Made by a program: the position numbers and the translations under genes. Of a DNA stretch of 64,000 bases, positions 16,651 through 56,227 are shown one piece after another (position 1 is the stretch's first letter; the number at the start of each line of letters is the position of its first letter). This DNA comes from an uncultured Candidatus Saccharibacteria bacterium (GTDB lineage: Bacteria > Patescibacteriota > WWE3 > UBA101185 > UBA10185), in contig CAZBAJ010000003.1 in NCBI GenBank assembly GCA_964490125.1, forward strand, positions 33,941-97,940. Reading direction: 5' to 3'. The notes beneath the pieces are model-generated. The model had not been told where the DNA came from. It made no database searches and worked only from the letters and a program-made list of their open reading frames with translations.

Positions 16651-17532
16651 ATGATGTCACCCGTTCCTGTAGCAATCGCAGCCTTGTTTTTGGTCAGCGC
16701 CTTGCTGGCTCCATTGGCGATGCCTTCCGTCGTCACCGCCTCGGTCACCCAGACCGAATCTTCCCCACTTCCGTGGGGTTCCGCCACGCCAACCCTGCTG
16801 ATCTCGCCCCTAACGGGCGAAACCCACGCGGTGTGGGTTGAGCGAGAGGGTTATACCAAAATCCGCCACTCGGTCGAGGCGACCGCCAGCGACTGGACTT
16901 ACGAAACCTACCCCGTCGCCTACGGCGACGCGCCGGATGTCGAATTCACCCAGGACGGTGTACTTCATATAGTGTTCGAAAACCAGTTCATGGGGAACTG
17001 GGAAATCTACTATGTGAAGTTGACCCCAGGGGCGGAGCGTTGGTCGCTTCCGATCAACGGTGCTTATACCCTGGGTGAGTCCCGAAACCCGAGGATGACG
17101 ACCGTCCCCGATGGTGTAGTTCGTATAGTCTGGCAGGACAACACGCCGGGCTATTGGACAATTTACCGGGGGGAACAGTGCGGTGCAGAACTGCAGTTTT
17201 TCTGCAACCGCCCCATTCCCTCAGGTAGAGGATTTGGACCAGATATTTTAGGCGACTGGATTGTCTGGCAAGACACCCCAAGTTGGGAAGGGGGAAATTT
17301 AATCCTCCTCCAGCACCAAGGAGAGTCCGTCTCGTGGATCGTCAACGAGACGGTCCAGTCTTTTGATGGACCCCGCATCCTGCCAGGTGGCGGGGTCCGG
17401 ATTCGCTGGTCGGACGCTGATGGCGCGGATTGGTTCTGCGACGCCTGGTCAGATCCCGAGGGGCGAATCCTTTTGGGGTATGTGTTGCCTTGGAAAGATT
17501 TCAGGATTTTTCTGCCCTCCGTAATTAAGTAG
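16651..17532 (+). CDS. Secreted PD40/TolB-like beta-propeller repeat protein, encoded in a GC-rich island
   Basis: N-terminal signal peptide. Repeated blades 'HAVWVEREGYTKI', 'HIVFENQFMGNWEIYYVKL', 'VRIVWQDNTPGYWTIY', 'WIVWQDTPSWEGG'. RBS GGAAGGAG lies 7 nt upstream. Local GC is about 58-60% against about 40% background. Confidence 0.5.
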   Translation: MMSPVPVAIAALFLVSALLAPLAMPSVVTASVTQTESSPLPWGSATPTLLISPLTGETHAVWVEREGYTKIRHSVEATASDWTYETYPVAYGDAPDVEFTQDGVLHIVFENQFMGNWEIYYVKLTPGAERWSLPINGAYTLGESRNPRMTTVPDGVVRIVWQDNTPGYWTIYRGEQCGAELQFFCNRPIPSGRGFGPDILGDWIVWQDTPSWEGGNLILLQHQGESVSWIVNETVQSFDGPRILPGGGVRIRWSDADGADWFCDAWSDPEGRILLGYVLPWKDFRIFLPSVIK

Positions 17533-17678
17533 GGTTAGTCCGGAGGGTTTAATGGGAGGGGTGAGTTGCCACACAAAGTCGTGTGTCGATTTGCCTCTCC
17601 TGAAGTCAGTACCGATAATTTTTGAAAATGTTTTACTCGCCGTTACTTAGTCGTAAAAATTAGTTAAACTTAGTTAAA

Positions 17679-27380: not shown

Positions 27381-27890
27381 ATGGAATTTCACCCAGTCGT
27401 TCAAAAAATTAAAGACTTGCTGGAAAGTCGTCAAATTAAGTACGAATATTTTGAACACGATCCTGTTAGAACCAGCGAGGAGGCCTCAAAAATCCGTCCA
27501 GGGTTTACCTTAAAACAGGGGGCAAAGGCGCTTATTGTTAAGTTGTATTTGCGCAGGGGTGTTTCTGCTAACGGCGCTCAATCGGAGAGGTTTGTTATGT
27601 TGGTGGTGCCGGGTGACGCCAGGTTTGACGGAAAAAAAGTCAAAAAGCTATTTGACGCCAAGGATTTGCGCTTTGCCACGGAAGAAGAAGTGAGTCAGGT
27701 TACTGGGGGAGTGTTGGTAGGCGGAGTGCCTCCGTTTGGGAGTTTATTTGGTTTGCAGACTTACATGGATCCGCAAGTTGCCCAAAACGAAAAAATTATT
27801 TTTAACGCAGGCGACAGGCGGGTAAGCATCGCTCTGGCGGTTGCGGACTATATTCTCGCGGAGAATCCTCAACAAGTCGACTTAATTTAA
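27381..27890 (+). CDS. YbaK/ProX-type aminoacyl-tRNA deacylase
   Basis: About 170 aa with 'KALIVK...VVPGD.R' and 'TGG.LVGGVPPFG' patterns typical of YbaK/EbsC editing domains. Confidence 0.6.
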   Translation: MEFHPVVQKIKDLLESRQIKYEYFEHDPVRTSEEASKIRPGFTLKQGAKALIVKLYLRRGVSANGAQSERFVMLVVPGDARFDGKKVKKLFDAKDLRFATEEEVSQVTGGVLVGGVPPFGSLFGLQTYMDPQVAQNEKIIFNAGDRRVSIALAVADYILAENPQQVDLI

Positions 27891-30802
27891 GCGTGTTGGG
27901 TTTGGGGTTTGACCAGTTTTGCCAAGTCAAAAACCACCGTTATCAAAAAGGAAAGACCTAAAACCAAGAGCCAGCTTTTGTATCCAACGGGCACAGTCTC
28001 AAAAAAGATGTTTAGTGGTGTGTAGACAATAATTATGGTGGCCACTAGCGAGGCAGAAGTCGCCCAAACCAAAGGCCTATTTACTAATGGTGAGCGACTC
28101 AATGTGGGTTTTCTAAACGACCTAAAAGTAAAAGCGGTTATAATTTCTAGACAGATTAGAGCAATAAGGGTAGTAGTTGCGGAGACTCCTGCGTCGTGCC
28201 CCCAAAAATTAAAGCTAAAATACTGGGCGACTAATGTCCCTAAACCCATAAGCGCGCCAGCAAATATCAAGGTAGAAACTGTAAAGCGGTTAATAATGCC
28301 ACTTTTAGCGCGGGGTTTGGCAAGCATAATATCGGGCGAGGTGGGGTTAAAACCAAGCATTATGGCGGGAAGGGAATCGGTGACCAGGTTCATAAACAGA
28401 ATTTGCAGTGCGGTAATTATGGGAATTTGCCAGCCAAACGATGGGGCAAGTAAAACGCCAAAAAACAAAACTAAAAGTTCGGCAAAGTTACACGCTAATT
28501 GGTACGACACAAATTTTTGGATATTATTAAAGACTCCGCGACCCTCCCTAACTGCGGAGATAATGGTAGCAAAATTATCGTCCTTTAAGGTTATGTCAGC
28601 GGTAGCGCGGGAGACATCCGTACCGTTTTTGCCCATGGCAATGCCCACATGCGCCTCTTTTAGCGCGGGTGCGTCATTAACGCCGTCTCCGGTCATGGCA
28701 ACAATATGACCCAGTTCTTTTAACGCTTTAACAATGCGGATTTTGTGTTCCGGACGCACCCGCGCAAAAACCACCGTCGATTCTACAATAAGTCGCAAAC
28801 CTTCGTCCGTTAAGTCGTCAATATCCGCGCCTTCCAAAGCCTTACCCTCAAGCCCAATTTTTCTACCAACCGAAATTGCCGTCTCAATATTGTCGCCCGT
28901 AATCATTTTTACTGTAATACCAGCCGTTTTTGCCGTTTGCACTGCCTGTTTAACTTCTTCCCGCGGAGGATCCTCCAGAGCCAGTAGTCCCAAAAATACC
29001 AAGTCAGACTCTAATTCTGCCAGCTCTTTTTTTACCAAATCCTGCGAGTTTAGCTCGTCAGCTGGTTTGTGTGTAAGTCGACCAAAAAGTCGTGCTAACA
29101 AAGAGTTGTGCGGATGATTTTCTACCGGATGCGGTCCCACTTTTTTATACGCCAGCGCCAAGGTTCGGTAAGCTTGACCGGACGCCTCATTTACCAAAGT
29201 TTTTATACTTTCTTTGGTTGACTCTGTGAGGGCAACTTCCTGTCCATCTTTTGCTATAAACGCGCTTTTTTCCAGTAGGACTTCCGGCGCGCCCTTGGAA
29301 AATACTATTACGCCGTCCGCACGACTTTCCTGGTCTTTTACCGCCACCGACATCATTTTTCTTTCGGAACTAAAGGGAAGTTCTTCCAGTCGAGCGGTGT
29401 CGATGTCCTCCTTGTATAGTCCCGCTTTGCCGGCTAAAACCAGGAGTGCGCCTTCGGTGGGGGAGCCGGTAACTTTAATGTCGGAGTTTTGTTCGGTGGC
29501 TTGTATTTTGGCGTCGTTACAAATGACGGCGCAGGTAAGTAGGCGTTTTAATTCGGGCGACATTGTAAGGTCGGCGACATACCTTCCCTCGCTAGGTCCT
29601 CGTCCGCCAAGGCGGACTGCGGAAGCGCTCGGGTAAGGTATGTCTGCCGACCCGCCATTGCCAAGGAAGGAGGCGTCAAGCCTTCTCACTTGGTCCTCCC
29701 CCGCTGTGGCGGGGTGCGGTGATCGTTCGAAGGACTTCTCGCCTCCTTTTTCATCGATATTCCCTCGTCGTACTATGTCCCCGTCTAAACTAAAACCCGC
29801 TCCACCTACATCATAAATATCGTTCCCACAATAAATTTGCTTAACAGTCATTTGACCCGTGGTAATAGTCCCTGTTTTGTCGCTACAAATTACCGTCACC
29901 TCACCCAGAGTTTCTATAACGCCCATCCTATTAACAATGGCGTTTTGTTTTGCCATTCGGCCCGCTCCTACCGCTAAAGTAGTAGTTAGTACCACGGGCA
30001 AGCCCTCCGGAAAGGAAGAAACAGAAAGCGCTACCACCAAAATTAAAATGCCTGTCATGTTTTCCCAATCCAAAGACGGATTCCGCACAAACATCAGAGC
30101 TCCAGTCGCTAAAGCCATCGTTAAACCAACTGCCACTGTATACTTCCCAATGGCGTTTACCTTTTTTTGCAAAGTTAACTCTTTTTCCGCACCGGAAATT
30201 AGGGATGCAATTTTGCCAAATTTGGTTGACATGCCGGTCTGCACAACGCGCGCTACACAGTGTCCACCCACAATAAATGAGCCCATATAAATCTCATCGT
30301 TTACAAACTTTTCTACCTCTTTAGCCTCTCCCGTTAAAACAGACTCGTTTACTAACAGCGATTTCTGGTCCAAAATCTCACAGTCAGCCGGCACTTTTTC
30401 TCCAGTTCGCAAAATTACAACGTCATCTGGTACTAAATATGTACTTTCCACCTTCTGTTCTTTGTCGTCCCTAATGACCGTGGAAAACTGGGTCAACATA
30501 TTTTTTAGCGCCTCCGTAGCCTTTTCTGCCTTGTATTCCTGAATAAAACCAAAGACCACTACTACAATTACTACTGCTATAAGTGCGTAGGTAGTTTCTA
30601 TTTTTCCCACAGCAAAAGAAATTATGGACGACACTGCAAGCAGATAAATTATAAAATTGCCTCTAATTTGTCGGAGTAAAATTTTAAGGGGACTTGCTTT
30701 GTTTGACTCTTTTATCTGGTTTAAACCGTATTTTTCTAGGCGACTTTGCGCTTCGCGCTGATTAAGTCCAACAAAACTTTGGGGCATGGATTTATTATAC
30801 AC
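27887..30802 (-). CDS. P-type cation-transporting ATPase (type II, Ca2+-ATPase-like)
   Basis: 'ICSDKTGTITTG' phosphorylation motif, 'MTGDGVNDAPALK' hinge motif and 'TGES'-like actuator region. 971 aa. It contains an in-frame GC-rich low-complexity insertion in the N domain (see repeats at 29573-29730). Confidence 0.9.
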   Translation of the reverse strand: MYNKSMPQSFVGLNQREAQSRLEKYGLNQIKESNKASPLKILLRQIRGNFIIYLLAVSSIISFAVGKIETTYALIAVVIVVVVFGFIQEYKAEKATEALKNMLTQFSTVIRDDKEQKVESTYLVPDDVVILRTGEKVPADCEILDQKSLLVNESVLTGEAKEVEKFVNDEIYMGSFIVGGHCVARVVQTGMSTKFGKIASLISGAEKELTLQKKVNAIGKYTVAVGLTMALATGALMFVRNPSLDWENMTGILILVVALSVSSFPEGLPVVLTTTLAVGAGRMAKQNAIVNRMGVIETLGEVTVICSDKTGTITTGQMTVKQIYCGNDIYDVGGAGFSLDGDIVRRGNIDEKGGEKSFERSPHPATAGEDQVRRLDASFLGNGGSADIPYPSASAVRLGGRGPSEGRYVADLTMSPELKRLLTCAVICNDAKIQATEQNSDIKVTGSPTEGALLVLAGKAGLYKEDIDTARLEELPFSSERKMMSVAVKDQESRADGVIVFSKGAPEVLLEKSAFIAKDGQEVALTESTKESIKTLVNEASGQAYRTLALAYKKVGPHPVENHPHNSLLARLFGRLTHKPADELNSQDLVKKELAELESDLVFLGLLALEDPPREEVKQAVQTAKTAGITVKMITGDNIETAISVGRKIGLEGKALEGADIDDLTDEGLRLIVESTVVFARVRPEHKIRIVKALKELGHIVAMTGDGVNDAPALKEAHVGIAMGKNGTDVSRATADITLKDDNFATIISAVREGRGVFNNIQKFVSYQLACNFAELLVLFFGVLLAPSFGWQIPIITALQILFMNLVTDSLPAIMLGFNPTSPDIMLAKPRAKSGIINRFTVSTLIFAGALMGLGTLVAQYFSFNFWGHDAGVSATTTLIALICLEIITAFTFRSFRKPTLSRSPLVNRPLVWATSASLVATIIIVYTPLNIFFETVPVGYKSWLLVLGLSFLITVVFDLAKLVKPQTQHA
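29573..29730. repeat. Two adjacent GC-rich palindromic mini-elements inside the P-type ATPase coding sequence (in frame)
   Basis: Element 1 spans about 29573-29648. Its outer inverted repeat is cgacataccttccc / gggtaaggtatgtc and its core hairpin is gtccgccAAggcggac. Element 2 spans about 29690-29730 with core hairpin cccccgcTGTGgcgggg. The two cores match the two elements near mnmA (gtccgccATGggcggac and cccccgccAGTggcggggg). GC is well above background. Confidence 0.5.
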
Positions 30803-41645: not shown

Positions 41646-42479
41646 TTACGGGGTAAGGATTTGGCAATTTGGACAAAAATATGTACCCCGCCCATTTAAC
41701 TTTTTGAACTGTACTTTGCTTTGACAGTCGGGGCAGTGTGTTTTTCCGTAAATTCTAAAATGATTTTGATGACTGCCGGGTTTTCCAAAGACATCAACAT
41801 ACGCTTCATCCGGTAAAGTGGATCCGCGGTGAGTAATGCCTTCCAGTAAAATCTCTTTGGCAGATTTGAGTAAAGCTTGTGCTTGTTTTAGCAAAATCTC
41901 TTGGGTTTTAGCTTCTGGGTGGATTCTTGCCATCCACAAGGCGTCCGTGGCGTAAATGTTTCCCAGTCCCGCAACAATTGTTTGGTCTAGCAAAGCGTTT
42001 TTAATATTTGTTCTCTTTGACCGCAACCTAGTCAAAAAAACTTCTGTGGTAATTTCTTCCAGCACCACATCCGGTCCGTATTTTTGCTTAAGTTTGTGGA
42101 CTCCTGCGGCGTCCAGCACGCCAGTTTTGCCAAACATCCGCGCGTCGCAAAACCTTAATAACTTAATTTTATCTTCGTTAGACAAGGTTAGTTGGACTTT
42201 TTGATGCGGAGCTTTTGGCGAATTATTGTCCTGCAGTAAGAGTCGCCCGGTCATAGCCAAATGAAAAGTTAAAAAACTGCCGTTACTTAATTTTATAACA
42301 ATGTTTTTTCCGACTCTCCCAACCTTGTTGACAAGCGATCCTGTTAGCAGTTGGGCGTAAATTTTATTCTCTGGGATAGTATTGTACCCATGTTCAATTT
42401 CTACTTTGTCTATACGCCAATCAACAAGGTTTTTCTTTAAATCACTGGCTATGATGTGGACTTCAGGCAGTTCCGGCAT
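41646..42479 (-). CDS. mutM: Formamidopyrimidine-DNA glycosylase (Fpg/MutM)
   Basis: Obligate N-terminus 'MPELPEV' (catalytic Pro2) and C-terminal zinc finger 'CPDCQ...CPNCQ'. Start set at the Met-Pro at 42479. Confidence 0.8.
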   Translation of the reverse strand: MPELPEVHIIASDLKKNLVDWRIDKVEIEHGYNTIPENKIYAQLLTGSLVNKVGRVGKNIVIKLSNGSFLTFHLAMTGRLLLQDNNSPKAPHQKVQLTLSNEDKIKLLRFCDARMFGKTGVLDAAGVHKLKQKYGPDVVLEEITTEVFLTRLRSKRTNIKNALLDQTIVAGLGNIYATDALWMARIHPEAKTQEILLKQAQALLKSAKEILLEGITHRGSTLPDEAYVDVFGKPGSHQNHFRIYGKTHCPDCQSKVQFKKLNGRGTYFCPNCQILTP

Positions 42480-43731
42480 TTTGCAAGTCCTCCCATTTTT
42501 GTCTAACAAAGTCGCCAAACTCTTGTTTAAATCGTTCTGTACTAAATTTTTGGACGGAGTTAATAGCTTTTTGGCTGTCGTACAAGCCCGCGTCTATGTT
42601 TTTGTCAAACTCTATAATTTTTTGCGACAGGTGTTGGGGCAAAAGCTCGTCAAAAAACATACCTGTTACACCTTCCTGCACAATTTCCAGCGGACCTCCG
42701 GAACGATGACACAAAACCGGCTTGCCGTAAGACAGGGCTTCCACCGGCACAATGCCAAAATCCTCGTGATCGGTGGGGAAGATAAAGCCTTTGCAATTTG
42801 CCAGCAGTTCTTGTTTTTGGTCGTTTGTGACAAAGCCTAAAAGCTCGATATTCTGCGTCTTAAGTAATAAATCCTGTCCAAGTACGGCTTTAGGTTCCGC
42901 GTCGATTCTGGGCCTTGTCAAAATTTCCGTTTTTGTTTGGGCTATTTCTCTAAGGCGTTTTTCTTCTTTACCTGTACCGGCGATTTTTAGTTTTAGGTTA
43001 GTGAGTTTAAACGCCTGGATTAATAAGTCGATGTTTTTATATGCTGCTAGACGGGAGATGCACAGGTAGTAACCGTCAGTCATATTATTAGGGGCTCGCA
43101 GGCGATGTCCATAAGCAGAAACTTGCGAAGCTCGTGACTGCGATGGACTCGCCAAGAGCCCCGACATGTCAACCGGAGGATAGATCACCACCGAATCCCG
43201 TCCATAAAACTTTTGTACTCGTTTAGCCACTTCTTGTGAGTTTAGCAGTATGTAATCCGGTCTTTGACTTGCGCAGTAGTCCCAGATGAGTAGAAAATGA
43301 TCGATAATTTTTAAAACCGGTTTAAAGTACCACTTTTCTCTTTTTTGACCTTCTGTGGCATAGCCATATAAAAACCTCGGTGGGGTATGAATATACGCAA
43401 CATGCAACTGTTGCGGATTTGTAATCACGCCCTTTGCCCAAATGACGCCCTCGCTTATTACAACATCGTAGTTTCTCAAATCAAAGCTCTCAAAGATAAA
43501 AGGCATCAGAAAACTTAGCCAAGTAGGCAAAGTTCTGCTAATTATCTTGTGCTCAAGTATTTTTTGACTAATATTTTTTGGTCGATAAATTCCTGTATAG
43601 ATGTCCGCTTGGGGGAAAATATCCAAAATCGCCTCTAAAGTCCGTTCCGCCCCGCCATATTGGGTTAGTTGGTCGCGAACAATGGCAATTTTTAAGTCGA
43701 CAAAATTTTTCACCCAAATATTATTGCACAT
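42463..43731 (-). CDS. GT4 (group 1) glycosyltransferase
   Basis: N-terminal 'IAIVRDQLTQYGGAERT' and a C-terminal GT-B domain with E...E motifs ('HEDFGIVPVEALSYGKP'). Confidence 0.75.
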   Translation of the reverse strand: MCNNIWVKNFVDLKIAIVRDQLTQYGGAERTLEAILDIFPQADIYTGIYRPKNISQKILEHKIISRTLPTWLSFLMPFIFESFDLRNYDVVISEGVIWAKGVITNPQQLHVAYIHTPPRFLYGYATEGQKREKWYFKPVLKIIDHFLLIWDYCASQRPDYILLNSQEVAKRVQKFYGRDSVVIYPPVDMSGLLASPSQSRASQVSAYGHRLRAPNNMTDGYYLCISRLAAYKNIDLLIQAFKLTNLKLKIAGTGKEEKRLREIAQTKTEILTRPRIDAEPKAVLGQDLLLKTQNIELLGFVTNDQKQELLANCKGFIFPTDHEDFGIVPVEALSYGKPVLCHRSGGPLEIVQEGVTGMFFDELLPQHLSQKIIEFDKNIDAGLYDSQKAINSVQKFSTERFKQEFGDFVRQKWEDLQNAGTA

Positions 43732-46445: not shown

Positions 46446-46448
46446 GAC

Positions 46449-46519
46449 TTGCCTGCGATTTGAGGAGTCGGGCGTCCGCCATGGGCGGACAGGGACCCGC
46501 GACGAAAAACGCAGGCAGG
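46449..46519. repeat. GC-rich palindromic mini-element, intergenic copy (HEPN gene / mnmA spacer)
   Basis: ttgcctgcg-atttgaggagtcgggcgtccgccatgggcggacagggacccgcgacga-aaaa-cgcaggcagg. It has outer inverted repeats and an inner perfect hairpin gtccgcc/ggcggac. The core is shared with the copy at 46965-47039. Confidence 0.6.
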
Positions 46520-46556
46520 TCGAGAATAATTCTTGTCGATGAGCTACAATCTCCCC

Positions 46557-47777
46557 ATGTCGTCAAACAAAATAAAAGTAGCGGTGGGGCTTAGCGGAGG
46601 CGTGGATTCGGCAGTTTCCGCCTACCTACTTAAATCTCAAGGTTACGATGTTACCGGCGTTCACATGCAATGCTGGGATTATTCCGACGAAACCTGCAAA
46701 GGCAACGAAGACCGCAGTGACGCGGTGGCAATTTGTGGTCAGCTGGATATTAAGTTTAAGTTTTTGAATTTTGAAAAAGAGTACAAAAGCAAGGTGATTG
46801 ACTATTTTTATGCGGAGTATAAGGCTGGGCGCACACCTAATCCGGATGTTTTGTGTAACAAGGAAATTAAGTTTGGACTTTTTTTGGACTGGGTGATGCG
46901 GGAAGGTTTTGACTTTGTGGCGACGGGGCATTATGCAAGAATAGAAAGCGCATTTGAGGAGGATGGCACGGCAATTCGAGGAGTCGGGCATCCCCCGCCA
47001 GTGGCGGGGGATCGGGACCCGCGACGAGAATGTCGTGCCATCCGACAAACACCGCAGTCGTACAGATTGCTCAAAGGCGTCGACGACAGCAAGGATCAGT
47101 CGTACTTTTTATACCGCCTGACCCAAAGTCAACTGGCAAAAACACTTTTCCCCATTGGCGCAATGAAAAAAAGCGAGGTTAGGAAAATTGCCAAAGAGCA
47201 AAAATTAGTGGTGGCGGAGAAAGCGGAAAGCATGGGGATTTGTTTTGTGGGCGAGGTGGACATCAACAAGTTTTTAAAAAAGCAGATTGAGCCAAAAGCG
47301 GGCGAAGTTATTTTAAAATCCACTGGGGAGACAATTGGTCGACATGAAGGAGTTTGGTTTTACACCATCGGTCAGCGCCACGGGTTTGAGGTGACCAAAT
47401 ATGTAGGTTTGCCGTTGTATGTGGTGGGTAAAAATATTGACCAGAACCAGTTAATTGTTGGCTATTACAACGACTGCTTGCGCGATGGGTTTGATGTCGA
47501 CGATGTTTTTTTTATATCGGAAGGCACGGCGCCAGCTTTTCAAATTCACGGTGTGGAGAACAAGCTCGGATTAGGTTTGGATAGCGAGGTAATTTCTTCC
47601 TTTGACTGCGATGTTCGTATAAGGCACTTGGGTCAACTATACAAGGCTAGGGTTACAAAATCGACAGCGAGTTCATTGCAGATACGACTTGAAGAATCCG
47701 CCTTTGGCGTTGCTCCAGGCCAATCCGCCGTTTTCTACCAGGGTGATGTGGTTTTAGGTGGCGGTGTAATAGTTTAG
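46557..47777 (+). CDS. mnmA: tRNA-specific 2-thiouridylase MnmA
   Basis: PP-loop 'VGLSGGVDSAV' and 'KDQSYFLY', with the C-terminal domain ending 'PGQSAVFYQGDVVLGGGVI'. Start chosen at 46557 (MSSNKIKVAVGL); the longer ORF starts at 46533. It contains a 25-codon in-frame element (46965-47039). Confidence 0.85.
   Translation: MSSNKIKVAVGLSGGVDSAVSAYLLKSQGYDVTGVHMQCWDYSDETCKGNEDRSDAVAICGQLDIKFKFLNFEKEYKSKVIDYFYAEYKAGRTPNPDVLCNKEIKFGLFLDWVMREGFDFVATGHYARIESAFEEDGTAIRGVGHPPPVAGDRDPRRECRAIRQTPQSYRLLKGVDDSKDQSYFLYRLTQSQLAKTLFPIGAMKKSEVRKIAKEQKLVVAEKAESMGICFVGEVDINKFLKKQIEPKAGEVILKSTGETIGRHEGVWFYTIGQRHGFEVTKYVGLPLYVVGKNIDQNQLIVGYYNDCLRDGFDVDDVFFISEGTAPAFQIHGVENKLGLGLDSEVISSFDCDVRIRHLGQLYKARVTKSTASSLQIRLEESAFGVAPGQSAVFYQGDVVLGGGVIV
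46965..47039. repeat. GC-rich palindromic mini-element, copy inserted in frame in mnmA (25 codons)
   Basis: ggcacggca-attcgaggagtcgggcatcccccgccagtggcgggggatcgggacccgcgacga-gaatgtcgtgcc. It shares 'att[tc]gaggagtcgggc' and 'gggacccgcgacga' with the intergenic copy and encodes GTAIRGVGHPPPVAGDRDPRRECRA, which lies in a region that is about 10 aa long in E. coli MnmA. Confidence 0.6.
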
Positions 47778-51694: not shown

Positions 51695-51774
51695 TTAAAT
51701 GACCTCATTTTCCTTAGTTGATCAATGTGGTAAATTGACGGCACTGAAATTGGCGCCGTTTTGAATAGTAGTCC

Positions 51775-52416
51775 TTAGACTGCGTTCCGGGTTAGACCGT
51801 GATAGAAACGGCGTATATTTTTATAGATAGACCTCTTCATCCCCTCTGTTTTCGTTGTATTGTTGATACTTCTTCCCGTTTCGTATTCGTATACGAGTCC
51901 AGAAACCATGTCTGCAACTTGAATCAACTCGTCGTTTTTGGAATTACTGTACCTTATTTCAAGTTGAGCATCGGATGATTTATCTTTAACAGCTCTTTTT
52001 ATATCCATTAAGTATTTTTTACTACCTTTACCGTCTATGACTATGTGAAATGCAAAAGAACCAGTTGGTAAAGTTTTCCTTATTTGAGCGAAAAGATAGC
52101 CTAAATACTTTCCGTAACTGGTATTAGGATCGTTAGGTTTTTTATTTACCACTAAAGCAAAAGCTTGGCATTCCACATGTTTCAGATTTCCAAAGAAAGC
52201 TTCCTTATATAAACCCCGCGTTTTCTGATACTTAAATTCATAACTTCCCGGAATTTTGAGATGTTTCTTGAGTGTTTGTATTTTTTCTACTGCCAGCATA
52301 GTGGAGATTTTGTCAGAAAAGTAAATTGCAGACATAACAAAAACTTTAGAAGCTCCTCGCCTTGTAATAGAGCCGATGTCGCCAGACTCGTCAATAAAAA
52401 GGTATTGTTTTACCAT
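51775..52416 (-). CDS. DUF3800-family protein
   Basis: N-terminal 'YLFIDESGD' and C-terminal 'LIQVADMVSG' are the hallmark motifs of DUF3800. Confidence 0.6.
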   Translation of the reverse strand: MVKQYLFIDESGDIGSITRRGASKVFVMSAIYFSDKISTMLAVEKIQTLKKHLKIPGSYEFKYQKTRGLYKEAFFGNLKHVECQAFALVVNKKPNDPNTSYGKYLGYLFAQIRKTLPTGSFAFHIVIDGKGSKKYLMDIKRAVKDKSSDAQLEIRYSNSKNDELIQVADMVSGLVYEYETGRSINNTTKTEGMKRSIYKNIRRFYHGLTRNAV

Positions 52417-53252: not shown

Positions 53253-54154
53253 GTCGTTTGTCCCCTGATTCTATTGTCGTACTATTACTACACAGGCAGG
53301 GCGTCAGCTCTTTGAAAAATTGTGGAAGAAAGTATAGGTAAGAAGACCTTTCTACTTTAAAGTCGTACAACAAGGTACCAGCAAAAAACGCTGATACCGT
53401 GGTCAAAAGACAAGTTCAAAAGTTGAAAGGCAAAAAGAATGTTTCTTTGAGAATTTGATCCTAGTTCAGGACGAACGCTAGCGGCGTGCCTAAGGTATGC
53501 AAGTCGAACGGTTTAATTGTCGCAAGATAGTTGGATAGTGGCGAACGGCTGAGTAACACACAGGAATCTACCCATAAGTAGAGGATAGTCTGCCGAAAGG
53601 CAGGGTAATACTCTATGTGGTCGCAAGACTAAAGCAGCAATGCGCTTAAGGATGAGCCTATGGCCTATCAGGTAGTTGGTGGGGTAATTGCCTACCAAGC
53701 CTATGACGGGTAGCCGGTCTGAGAGGACGAACGGCCAGAGGGGGACTGAGACACGGCCCTCACTCCTACGGGAGGCAGCAATTGGGAATTTTGCACAATG
53801 GACGAAAGTCTGATGCAGCGACGCCGCGTGAAGGATGACGGCCTTCGGGTTGTAAACTTCGATAAAGCACCGGCAAACTACGTGCCAGCAGCAGCGGTCA
53901 TACGTAGGGTGCAAGCGTTGTCCGGATTTACTGGGCGTAAAGAGTTCTGTAGGCGGTTGCGTAAGTTACAAGTTAAATCTTTGGGCTCAACCCAAAAACT
54001 GCTTTTAATACTGCGCGACTAGAGACATCTAGGGGACAGCGGAACTTATGGTGGAGCAGTGAAATGCGTTGATATCATAGGGAACACCAAGGGGGTAGCC
54101 AGCTGTCTGGGGATGTACTGACGCTGAGAGACGAAAGCGTGGGGAGTAAAACGG

Positions 54155-55192
54155 ATAGTAGTCTGGTCCCTCCTTTAAGGTGACTTTTAGGAGAAAAATT
54201 CGGCTATATGCTGGGACACCCGTACCACAATTAAGGGAAATATGTGGTTGACACCAAAATGTCGTAAAAGTATCTTGAACTACTAAACATATTCGGGTAA
54301 AATTCGTATATGTTCAGTGAAAATGTTTCAAGTGCGGACAATCAGCAGGAAAGACTGGGAACAAAAGTTCCCGGAATCCTCAGAGACTGTACGCCGAATG
54401 TCTCGGGTTCTTTTGGTTTACCTTCCTTATTGGGTCTACTTTATACTGATGGCTGTCTTTCAGCCAAAGGTAAAAGTTGGCGTTTATTCTTTGCCGTCAA
54501 GTCGTACAAACTGGTATGCGTGTTTGAAGAATGCGTCTATCGGTTGTTTAATGTCGACAAGGGCAGAGTGAGGGTAGCTAGAACAAAAGATGATTTATGG
54601 AGAGCGGTTGTAGACTCTAAAGAAATTGGAAACTACTTAACAAAAAACTTTGGTTGTTTTAGAACAGCAAAGTTTAAAGACGGTTCCTTACCGGGAATCA
54701 GGTTACCATTAACCTATCTTAGGCAATGTAACGGTATTAGAGAATTTTTGTCGTCCGCATTTAGTTGCGACGGCGGAGTTTCTTTTTATCCAGTTTACAG
54801 AACCGGTAGGTTTGGTGGAACTAGGTGGTTTAACAGAAATGTTTTTTTGGCGTGTATGCACCCTATGTTACTTAATGACTACAGTTTTTTGCTAAATTCA
54901 TTGGGTATAAAGGGGTCTGTGCTAAACGACAGGATAAAGATTTCTTCTAGAGAAGATATGTCCAACTTCCAGCGTGAAGTGGATTTTATCAAAGGTGTTG
55001 AGGTTACTAATCATTCCAAACTATGGAGAGGTTTAGATAAGTCAACACTATTAACATACGCTATAAATTCATATACAAACCGAGATAATGGTATAGCCCG
55101 ATCTCTATAGCGATATAGAGAGTTAGTGATAGTGTACTAACCTTTTGTCCTAATTAAAGAGTGACAAAAGCAACAAGCAGAAATATTACAAT
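54155..55192 (+). mobile_element. Intervening sequence or intron within the 16S gene (at the 'GGATTAGATACCC' ~785-800 region), carrying a homing-endonuclease ORF
   Basis: About 1036 nt absent from the canonical 16S alignment. The boundaries are ambiguous by 1-2 nt because 'at' is shared at the junction. Class (group I, other, or unspliced IVS) was not determined. Confidence 0.6.
54310..55110 (+). CDS. LAGLIDADG homing endonuclease (double-motif)
   Basis: Motif 1 'LLGLLYTDGCLS' and motif 2 'FLSSAFSCDGGVSF', about 100 aa apart, inside the 16S intervening sequence. 266 aa. Confidence 0.7.
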   Translation: MFSENVSSADNQQERLGTKVPGILRDCTPNVSGSFGLPSLLGLLYTDGCLSAKGKSWRLFFAVKSYKLVCVFEECVYRLFNVDKGRVRVARTKDDLWRAVVDSKEIGNYLTKNFGCFRTAKFKDGSLPGIRLPLTYLRQCNGIREFLSSAFSCDGGVSFYPVYRTGRFGGTRWFNRNVFLACMHPMLLNDYSFLLNSLGIKGSVLNDRIKISSREDMSNFQREVDFIKGVEVTNHSKLWRGLDKSTLLTYAINSYTNRDNGIARSL

Positions 55193-55683
55193 GTAGATAC
55201 CCGTGTAATCCACGCCGTAAACCATGCCTGCTAGATACCCGATTTATTTTAGGTGTCGAAGCTAACGCGTTAAGCAGGCCGCCTGGGGAGTACGGTCGCA
55301 AGGCTAAAACTCAAAGGAATTGGCGGGGTCCCGCACAAGCGGTGGAGCATGCTCTTCAATTGGCTGCTAACCCAAGAACCTTACCCAGACTTGACATGCA
55401 AGAGTTCTATGCCGGTGAAAGCCGGCAAATCCGCAAGGAGGCTTGCACAGGTGTTGCATGGCTGTCGTCAGCTCGTATCGTGAGACGTACCCTTAAGTGG
55501 GCTAACGAGCGCAACCCCTACCGTTAGTTGTATCACTCTAGCGGAACTGCCCTGGTAACAGGGAGGAAGGCGGGGACGACGTCAAGTCAGGATTGCCTTT
55601 ATGTCTGGGGCTAGAAGCATGCTACAATGGCGCGTACAGCGAGAAGCAAGATCGTGAGGTTGAGCAAATCTCTTAAAACGCGT

Positions 55684-55722
<39 letters not shown>

Positions 55723-56227
55723 TTGGAATCGCTAGTAATCGGCGGTCAGCTATACGCCGGTGAATACGTTCTCGGGTCTTGCACACACCGCCCGTCACGC
55801 CAGCAAAGCTGGGGCTACCCTAAATCTCTGCATTAGTAGGGCTCACGGTAGAACCAGTGATGAGGGTGAAGTCGTAACAAGGTAGCCGTAGGGGAATCTG
55901 CGGCTGGATCACCTCCTTTCTAGGGAGAAACTTTAGCCAGTGAAAAATCGGATACTTTAATGACCAAGCGTCAAGCGAGTCCGTCTTTGAATCTGGCGCC
56001 GTCTGACCAAGAAACTCATAAGTCAAACGCGTAACCTCCATAACTCACGGAGGGTTGGGTAAGTTTTAAGGTAAGCTTCAAACCTTTAAATGAGCATTCT
56101 TTTTGCCTTTCTTCCTTTGAACAATTAAATTTAGGACGACTTTTTGGGCGACAAATTAGGAGTTTGACGATTTTATCTGTTGATATGTCGCACGATTTGT
56201 CCACTTTGTGCGATTTAACGGTGTTAA

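Follow-up and report, generated by a model that had tools for sequence, protein, structure and literature searches.

A GC-rich in-frame insert in a P-type ATPase of a Candidatus Saccharibacteria bacterium comprises two hairpin units of a palindromic repeat superfamily with a core common to Luteibacter

A P-type ATPase gene of type II (Ca2+/cation), located on the minus strand at positions 27887-30802 of a 64-kb stretch of DNA (the window) from an uncultured Candidatus Saccharibacteria bacterium (assembly GCA_964490125.1, contig CAZBAJ010000003.1), carries in the part encoding the nucleotide-binding (N) domain an in-frame insert that is made up of two tandem hairpin units. The insertion is genuine, and is one instance of a palindromic repeat superfamily not described before, the core of which is common to the gammaproteobacterium Luteibacter, and which in this Patescibacteria lineage is found at loop-coding hot spots in a number of housekeeping genes. 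The insert probably consists of two adjacent copies of a small non-autonomous palindromic element, which behaves like the Rickettsia palindromic elements (RPEs), is built like REPINs, i.e. hairpins formed by repetitive extragenic palindromes (REPs), or transposable elements of the miniature inverted-repeat type (MITEs), and is tolerated at places where translation turns it into a surface loop. A preliminary description of this DNA, made from the sequence alone, had already proposed that a GC-rich hairpin element was inserted in frame in the N domain and is tolerated by the protein, and this core reading is supported by the present analysis.

The ATPase is encoded by an uninterrupted open reading frame (ORF) of 971 amino acids (aa), whose closest structure in the PDB is the Listeria Ca2+-ATPase LMCA1 (E = 1.7e-134), and whose homologs contain the Pfam domains Cation_ATPase_N, E1-E2_ATPase, Hydrolase and Cation_ATPase_C. 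The window resembles a genome of the Patescibacteria (candidate phyla radiation, CPR) in its 42% GC and its 2,477-nt 16S gene, and the closest named relatives of its proteins are assigned to the 'Patescibacteria group' and to candidate division WWE3. The phosphorylation motif DKTGT occupies aa 308-312, and 92 residues separate it from the first helix of the N domain, versus 18 residues in LMCA1. The segment of about 80 aa that was first described between the DKTGT and hinge motifs does sit there, but its extra part amounts to 56 aa over the nearest ortholog with an empty site (locus L115), or to aa 348-412 when delimited by AlphaFold confidence, which gives a range of ~56-65 residues for the insertion, and the first ~20 residues of the 84-aa string then taken to be inserted (GGAGFSLDGDIVRR...) form a native conserved beta-hairpin. 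The guanine-plus-cytosine (GC) content is indeed far above that of the gene, being 62% in the island at 29551-29749 versus 46% in the ATPase gene and 42% in the window, and the downstream two-thirds of the ATPase, including the hinge and transmembrane helices 5-10, are read in the same frame as the upstream part.

The whole insert spans 29567-29761 (minus strand, aa 348-412; GC 62%), its translation is rich in Gly, Ser, Ala, Pro and Arg, with stretches such as SPHPATAGEDQVR and LGGRGPSEGR, and in the order of the gene it comprises unit B, a 14-nt linker and unit A. Unit A is a long imperfect hairpin at 29569-29652 (plus strand), whose arms (29569-29587 and 29632-29652) form 19 bp with an arm-arm free energy (dG) of -32, versus -11.8 for shuffled arms, and enclose a core at 29588-29631 (plus) in which CTCGCTAGGTCCTCG and CTGCGGAAGCGCTCG stand on either side of the apical hairpin TCCGCCaaGGCGGA. 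Unit B is a second hairpin in the same orientation at 29667-29748 (plus; core 29685-29729), and has a stem of its own, AAGGAGGCG..AAG / CTT..CGCCTCCTT. Internally, A and B match each other as a 35-nt direct repeat of 74% identity, and the changes between their apical stems are compensatory (TCCGCC/GGCGGA in A versus CCCCGC/GCGGGG in B). According to the fold prediction, the outer stem of each unit leads through internal loops to an apical hairpin rich in GC; the 201-nt region is much more stably folded than expected by chance, with z = -9.2 (sense strand) and z = -7.1 (plus strand), and none of 200 shuffles was as stable. The insert is not a single element enclosed by an inverted repeat, as had been reported: that repeat (GACATACCTTCCC / GGTAAGGTATGTC) exists at 29576-29588 / 29632-29644 with a length of 13 nt and 92% complementarity, but it bounds unit A only, and the end originally given for the element, 29730, falls inside unit B. 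We also observed a direct repeat of 8 nt, GGCGACAT (read on the gene strand as ATGTCGCC), at 29556-29563 and 29573-29580, with one copy within an arm of unit A and the other 9 nt outside it; a comparable pair is found in L081, and the repeat may be a junction remnant of an insertion.

A structure prediction by AlphaFold2, based on an alignment of 21 orthologs, yielded a model of moderate overall quality (mean pLDDT 64, pTM 0.42), in which aa 348-412 have a pLDDT of 25-30 and are without secondary structure, and the flanking strands and helix of the N domain reach 73-88; the insert is thus predicted to be a disordered loop between confidently predicted elements of the N domain. Elsewhere in the same protein there is a second lineage-specific indel (GPHPVENHPHNSLLARLFGRLTHKPADELN...) at 29015-29137 (aa 556-596), which is common to the related proteins P0002 and P0004 and missing from the other relatives, has an AlphaFold confidence below 50 at residues 562-565 and 574-587, and shows neither a raised GC content nor a strong hairpin flagged in the energy scan.

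Comparison with related loci (L numbers) and proteins (P numbers; P0007 is paired with L004, and P0005 with L082) reveals that the site is variably empty, filled, rearranged or inverted, in line with the presence/absence pattern that the preliminary description had proposed to look for. It had also named a conserved insert of the same length in unrelated lineages as the finding that would speak against it; LMCA1, SERCA, and the archaeal and other Patescibacteria homologs (~880 aa) are all without the insert. Homologs at ~50% identity are all close to 880 aa in length, compared with 870-950 aa for the 17 closest relatives (60-78% identity), and in the alignment this variation falls mainly at the loop in question, which measures 10-82 residues in the close orthologs (60-78% identity) and ~18 in distant homologs. 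In the syntenic loci L115 and L116 the site is empty (...D G S A | E F D R...), and the window protein is 56 residues longer there. L082 and L004 have flanks that are 84-93% identical and differ by a 177-nt block, the junctions of which bear 6-bp direct repeats (GACTTA/GACCTA); this comparison alone shows what may be a target-site duplication, with none found consistently at the other sites compared. In a neighbour-joining tree of the ATPases (833 ungapped columns), the filled sites fall into two clades that are not sisters, and the empty P0007/L004 is nested beside the filled P0005/L082, for which reason the empty site of L004 is best read as a clean secondary loss. Judging from this tree, the history of the site would need either at least two gains and one loss, or one old gain and at least five losses.

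The homology of the inserts lies in their DNA and not in a conserved peptide. The inserts of the window and L082 have exact blocks in common, e.g. CGAGGACCTAGCGAGGGAAGG, and core B is 89% identical between them, compared with 68-75% for the flanking host gene; overall, the core is conserved at 89-98% versus 68-79% for the host gene. In the closest ortholog, L081 (78% protein identity), unit A is inverted relative to the gene and still in frame, as indicated by alignment scores of 88 versus 31 and an identity of ~84% across 85 nt, and the inverted unit encodes a peptide unrelated to that of the window. As the two orientations encode differing peptides, the protein sequence of the insert is not the conserved thing, which speaks against its being under selection. 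At least six independent assemblies (L081, L082, L083, L084, L093 and, for neighbouring elements, L117) have homologous, frame-keeping inserts at matching codon positions.

The family extends well beyond the ATPase. A metagenome scan at the DNA level, which was blind to ORFs and used a 20-nt pattern from core A, returned 28 loci, of which 16 have true copies, conserved also in the 3' core half that lay outside the seed (CTGCGGAAnCGCTCG) and in the architecture of the hairpin. Under a covariance model built from A-type copies (R1), these scan-found copies score E = 1e-17 to 1e-27, and unit A of the window scores 79.7 bits (E = 4.5e-19). Four copies lie in low-GC, Patescibacteria-like contigs, one in the ATPase ortholog of L093 and three in a GT4 glycosyltransferase (L096, L087 and L104), where they are in frame directly past an IYPFVD motif, with that of L104 inverted relative to the other two. 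Core A of the window is 98% identical to that of L096, whose host gene is unrelated, and the arms are 44-50% identical. The other copies lie in contigs of 61-70% GC and are intergenic, e.g. between lpxC and secA beside ftsZ, with 2-3 copies per few kb as detected by R1 and up to 3 in 4 kb. Identical FtsZ and LpxC proteins are encoded by L100 and by a cultured Luteibacter strain, and the PNPase of L090 falls in a mostly Luteibacter cluster, these protein identities being confirmed by NCBIfam; therefore, the core is a multi-copy intergenic repeat in a gammaproteobacterium, and the Luteibacter contigs carrying it include L089, L090, L099, L100, L113 and L114, among others. This Luteibacter repeat is ~100 nt long, has the core CTCGCTAAGTCCTCGTCCGGCCTTCGCCTCCCTGCGGArwCGCTC, falls into at least three arm subfamilies and has no Rfam match; its intergenic copies are 76-80% identical to core A of the window, and the core consensus of the whole family (~45 nt) takes the form CTCGCTArGTCCTCG - hairpin - CTGCGGArnCGCTCG.

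In a set of 15 copies, identity is 87% in the core and only 45-49% in the arms, yet each copy pairs its own arms over 15-22 bp with a mean of about -31 kcal/mol, versus -9 to -20 for shuffled arms, and double compensatory changes are seen in 9 of the 18 consensus pairs. Since Luteibacter subfamilies show the same arms at different loci, the arms belong to the repeated unit. Transition mismatches in the arms, read in the orientation of the seed, number 21 A.C versus 1 G.U, which corresponds to G.U wobbles on the opposite strand, and both copies of the mnmA-type unit M2 described below have a G.T wobble on the corresponding strand. This count comes from about six independent lineages only, and it hints, at best suggestively, that one strand folds as a single strand, be it single-stranded DNA (ssDNA) or RNA. 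As the folding strand is sense in some hosts and antisense in others, such selection would be the element's own, and not that of the host mRNA.

Within the window, an energy scan of the 64 kb ranked as the strongest hairpins, besides those of tRNAs, rRNA and a GC-rich ORF, the ATPase pair, two units at mnmA (M1 and M2) and a 72-nt hairpin in a glycosyltransferase gene. M1 (46447-46520, plus strand) occupies the spacer upstream of mnmA, and is found in the window and its near-identical relative L117 only, being missing from L118 and L119. M2 (46961-47043, plus) lies in frame within mnmA, where the 30-residue insert (46974-47063) is flanked exactly by the counterparts of B. subtilis MnmA residues 142|143; at this position MnmA relatives show empty sites, M2-type inserts or other inserts, and the arms of M2 covary between the window and L118. 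M1 and M2 have the junction motifs GAGGAGTCGGGC ... GGGACCCGCGACGA in common. Because the 5' arm of M2 encodes a native-looking E-D-G-T, its 3' arm may, suggestively, be an inverted copy of host sequence.

BLAST of the ATPase insert against the window found no second copy, and the family was detected via structure and motif only. On the window, model R1 detects unit B at E = 0.0033 and M2 at E = 0.27 on the predicted strand, and does not detect M1. A second model built from M-type units (R2) scores M1 at 85.8 bits and finds its best non-self match of the window in ATPase unit A (E = 0.017, predicted strand); it also matches a degenerate insert in the glycosyltransferase of L084 (E = 0.012). 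From these scores, unit B is a diverged copy of the A family and the mnmA units are its distant relatives. The idea that the insert contains the same hairpin cores as the elements near mnmA thus holds for the architecture and for these weak reciprocal matches, but not at the level of sequence, as BLAST detects no similarity and the exact core motif is confined to the ATPase; the relationship to the mnmA elements is borne out as one of a distant superfamily. The 72-nt hairpin (43091-43162, minus strand, dG ~-46) lies in frame past an IYPPVD motif in a GT4 glycosyltransferase (ORF 42463-43731), and its core is different although its behaviour is alike: it forms a ~24-aa insert missing from the orthologs in L003, L002 and L119, and at the equivalent site a paralogous glycosyltransferase of other genomes carries an ATPase-type unit. 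Further length differences were noticed in these two proteins. The window glycosyltransferase has a second lineage-specific insert of 27 aa (KTEILTRPRIDAEPKAVLGQDLLLKT), also present in L084; the C-terminal region of MnmA (~47520-47590) has a window-specific segment, GTAPAFQIHGVENKLGLGLDSEVIS, missing even from the 86%-identical P0121, and other MnmA relatives carry different inserts at two further positions of the C-terminal domain.

The unit that emerges is an imperfect hairpin of ~85 nt (72-85 nt), in which a copy-specific and self-pairing outer stem of 12-22 bp surrounds a ~45-nt core of two internal-loop strands on either side of a GC-rich apical hairpin. Most of the DNA of Patescibacteria genomes is coding. 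Copies would land in, or persist at, a few permissive places, and those that survive would be the frame-keeping and stop-free ones within surface loops, read through by the ribosome as a disordered peptide of indifferent sequence. All the in-gene copies, in both orientations and in three different genes, including those found by the ORF-blind scan, keep the frame and are stop-free; given this pattern and the unshifted frame of the downstream ATPase, the simplest reading is that the insert is read through as a passenger loop, the mode proposed for RPEs (PMC10969869). Movement, past or present, may have gone through a single-stranded hairpin intermediate, with the element being mobilised in trans by an enzyme encoded elsewhere, e.g. 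a transposase of the HUH or REP-associated tyrosine transposase (RAYT) type, or being spread by recombination, and GC-rich copies perhaps reached the AT-richer Patescibacteria genome by horizontal transfer.

Several points weigh against such a mobile element. No transposase, HUH/RAYT enzyme or reverse transcriptase is found among the ~50 ORFs of the window, no autonomous partner has come to light, and the Patescibacteria copies are few, with four related units and one other hairpin in 64 kb and one site per related locus. Classical MITEs and REPINs have conserved ends, the opposite of the variable arms and conserved core seen here. The filled ATPase sites could derive from a single ancient insertion followed by at least five losses, and the direct repeat that makes up the only candidate target-site duplication may instead be one that mediated a deletion. 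Lastly, the evidence that the insert is translated is the integrity of the ORF.

A bolder proposal, which we put forward as rather unlikely, is that the ~45-nt core is a functional single-stranded module of a cross-phylum (Luteibacter/Patescibacteria) mobile element that colonises loop-coding hot spots. The core could then serve a mobilising enzyme, of the HUH type or another, as its site of recognition or cleavage, or alternatively be a small catalytic or protein-binding RNA of a new type, and part of the stem might be built from the target flank, as the mnmA copy hints.

The conservation of the core across phyla, to a higher degree than the host genes, the maintenance of the stems through compensatory change and the strand asymmetry of the arm mismatches, which is what would be expected if one single strand were selected, could also be explained by a cis-acting structured nucleic-acid element that is kept by selection for a function of its own, such as an RNA that binds proteins or processes itself, a target of an RNase, or a site between the P and N domains at which translation pauses. 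However, the orientation relative to the host mRNA flips between orthologs, which makes a function of the sense-strand mRNA unlikely; furthermore, the element is missing from most orthologs, the Luteibacter copies are intergenic and clustered in the fashion of selfish repeats, no Rfam family matches even at E <= 10, and the asymmetry was counted in only about six independent lineages. We hence regard selection for such a function as improbable. Little probability, too, is given to a vertically inherited lineage-specific loop with a single origin, which later decayed, rearranged or was lost without any mobility, and whose hairpins are a by-product of, for example, palindromic duplication. It would account for the single site shared by all the ATPase copies, for the recognisable homology of the B-A composite in both filled clades and for the empty P0007/L004, best explained by secondary loss; yet the filled clades are not sisters, a 98% identical core is found in a different gene elsewhere and in multiple copies in Luteibacter, the core is better conserved than the flanking gene, and unit A is inverted in L081. 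The presence of the element at further unrelated loci of one genome, which would tell against a single inherited loop, is already borne out in part.

Hairpins as stable as these within a coding region, together with the matching junction codons of L082 (GAC TTA ... GAC CTA), bring to mind an insert that is cut from the mRNA or skipped by the ribosome, as in the yeast mitochondrial 'byps' or the hop in phage T4 gene 60. But the matching codons are seen in that lineage only, and every variant is a multiple of three and stop-free in the frame used, a constraint that would be needless if the insert were skipped, so that non-translation seems very improbable. Finally, the source is a metagenome-assembled genome and the GC content of the insert departs from that of the genome, as it would in a chimeric join or a foreign read cluster; against such an artefact of assembly or binning stand the homologous in-frame inserts at the same codon positions in the independent assemblies listed above, which reduce its probability to a negligible level. 

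Other candidates were rejected. The appeal of regarding the outer stem as host flank plus an inverted copy made at insertion lies in the native-looking codons that form the 5' arms, 'GSA(D)' in the ATPase and 'EDGT' in MnmA; this idea was discarded for the ATPase and is suggestive only for M2, for the 'empty' L004 bearing GGGGTCGGCGGAC has filled sites around it in the tree and probably shows the footprint left by a deletion, the Luteibacter subfamilies carry their arms along with the element, and the whole unit, including the arm bulge, is inverted between the window and L081. Resemblances of the core to SRP RNA, HDV, hammerhead and twister found no backing in Rfam, and an intein or a group I/II intron is excluded by size and by the lack of motifs. 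In viral contigs, a loose core pattern gave two chance matches without hairpins. The insert peptide had no candidates among 5.8 billion proteins, and distant blastn of annotated plasmids with the window insert and a Luteibacter copy gave no match. Rfam 15 yielded no match to the element at the gathering level, either in the window or in 10 loci, the hits at E <= 10 being only long-hairpin noise far below thresholds, and a literature search on 15-mers of the core and on MITEs in Patescibacteria returned nothing relevant on the core sequence or such elements.

Some further features of the window were noted in passing. The 16S rRNA gene (53443-55919) is 2,477 nt long versus a model of 1,533 nt, and its ~940-nt insertion contains a 266-aa ORF (54310-55107) with a LAGLIDADG_3 domain (E = 1.1e-6); it is intron-like with a homing endonuclease, an element type distinct from the hairpin units. 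A 293-aa ORF at 16651-17532 has 63% GC versus 42% in the genome, no Pfam match and a signal-peptide-like N terminus, and may have been horizontally acquired from a high-GC organism; it shows a strong GC hairpin at ~17370-17400 (GGACCCCGC...GCGGGGTCC), followed by two more stable hairpins (17509-17600). A DUF3800-domain ORF on the minus strand (51778-52416) has its 3' end overlapped by a match to the Rfam RNA motif DUF3800-IX at 51752-51819 (38.8 bits, slightly above the gathering score of 36.8).

The survival of selfish palindromic DNA within coding genes has so far been documented chiefly in Rickettsia. Its occurrence in Patescibacteria suggests that genomes which are reduced and dense in genes have made room for such elements repeatedly through translation as surface loops, here in an ion pump, in an enzyme that modifies tRNA and in glycosyltransferases, at hot spots that recur and in both orientations, and that the elements are a possible source of some of the lineage-specific inserts and length variation of these proteins. 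It also cautions those who annotate genomes or predict structures against taking such segments for functional domains. The core copies of Luteibacter offer a culturable organism for direct tests of mobility or activity, and if the core should prove to be functional, it would represent a mobile element of a new, cross-phylum class by which the proteins of ultra-small bacteria are reshaped.

How the element compares with known systems depends on whether its build or its behaviour is considered, and we do not file it as an RPE, a REPIN or a MITE. REPINs are hairpin-forming mobile units of ~70-110 bp (PMC3116915), and, like the units here, they are predicted to fold in ssDNA or RNA, are non-autonomous and persist in lineages (PMC3116915, PMC3337134); the Luteibacter copies resemble them further in being multi-copy, clustered and extragenic. 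However, REPINs conserve the inverted REPs at their ends and the spacer less so, which is reversed in the present family, and they are almost exclusively extragenic, whereas the Patescibacteria copies of the window are few and mostly intragenic, with no RAYT gene in the 64 kb. Intragenic MITEs such as ERIC, Correia and BOX (PMC10969869) are likewise small with inverted-repeat ends, are occasionally fused in frame to ORFs and vary in presence among strains. Each copy here has complementary arms as well, but these are not conserved between subfamilies, so that no terminal inverted repeats are common to all copies; there is no clear target-site duplication, and the window holds no parent insertion sequence with the same ends. 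GC-rich hairpins within the genes of AT-richer reduced genomes are also known as the GC clusters and 'byps' of yeast mitochondria and the coding palindromes of Nematomorpha (PMC6649704), in which coding function and strong secondary structure coexist. Those systems are organellar, and byps are skipped by the ribosome while the frame and stop statistics here favour read-through; in Nematomorpha the protein encoded by both arms of the palindrome is conserved, whereas the peptide is unconstrained here.

In behaviour, on the other hand, the element comes closest to the mode described for RPEs, which insert in frame in many Rickettsia genes (Ogata et al. 2000, as cited in PMC10969869). As summarised there, RPEs are palindromic repeats of ~100-150 bp in a reduced genome, have no transposase of their own, and occur both in intergenic copies and in frame in unrelated housekeeping genes, to which they add a peptide at positions that the fold allows. 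RPE families are conserved in peptide or sequence along the whole element, in contrast to the present family, where conservation is confined to a 45-nt core and the arms are copy-specific; in addition, both orientations occur here at one site and the core is in common with a gammaproteobacterium. Since the host belongs to the Patescibacteria, a different phylum, RPE membership is not claimed, and the likeness is one of behaviour only: long palindromic hairpins, here of 72-85 nt, reside as in-frame, stop-free copies in the intact ORFs of unrelated genes, namely those for the ATPase, MnmA and two GT4 glycosyltransferases.

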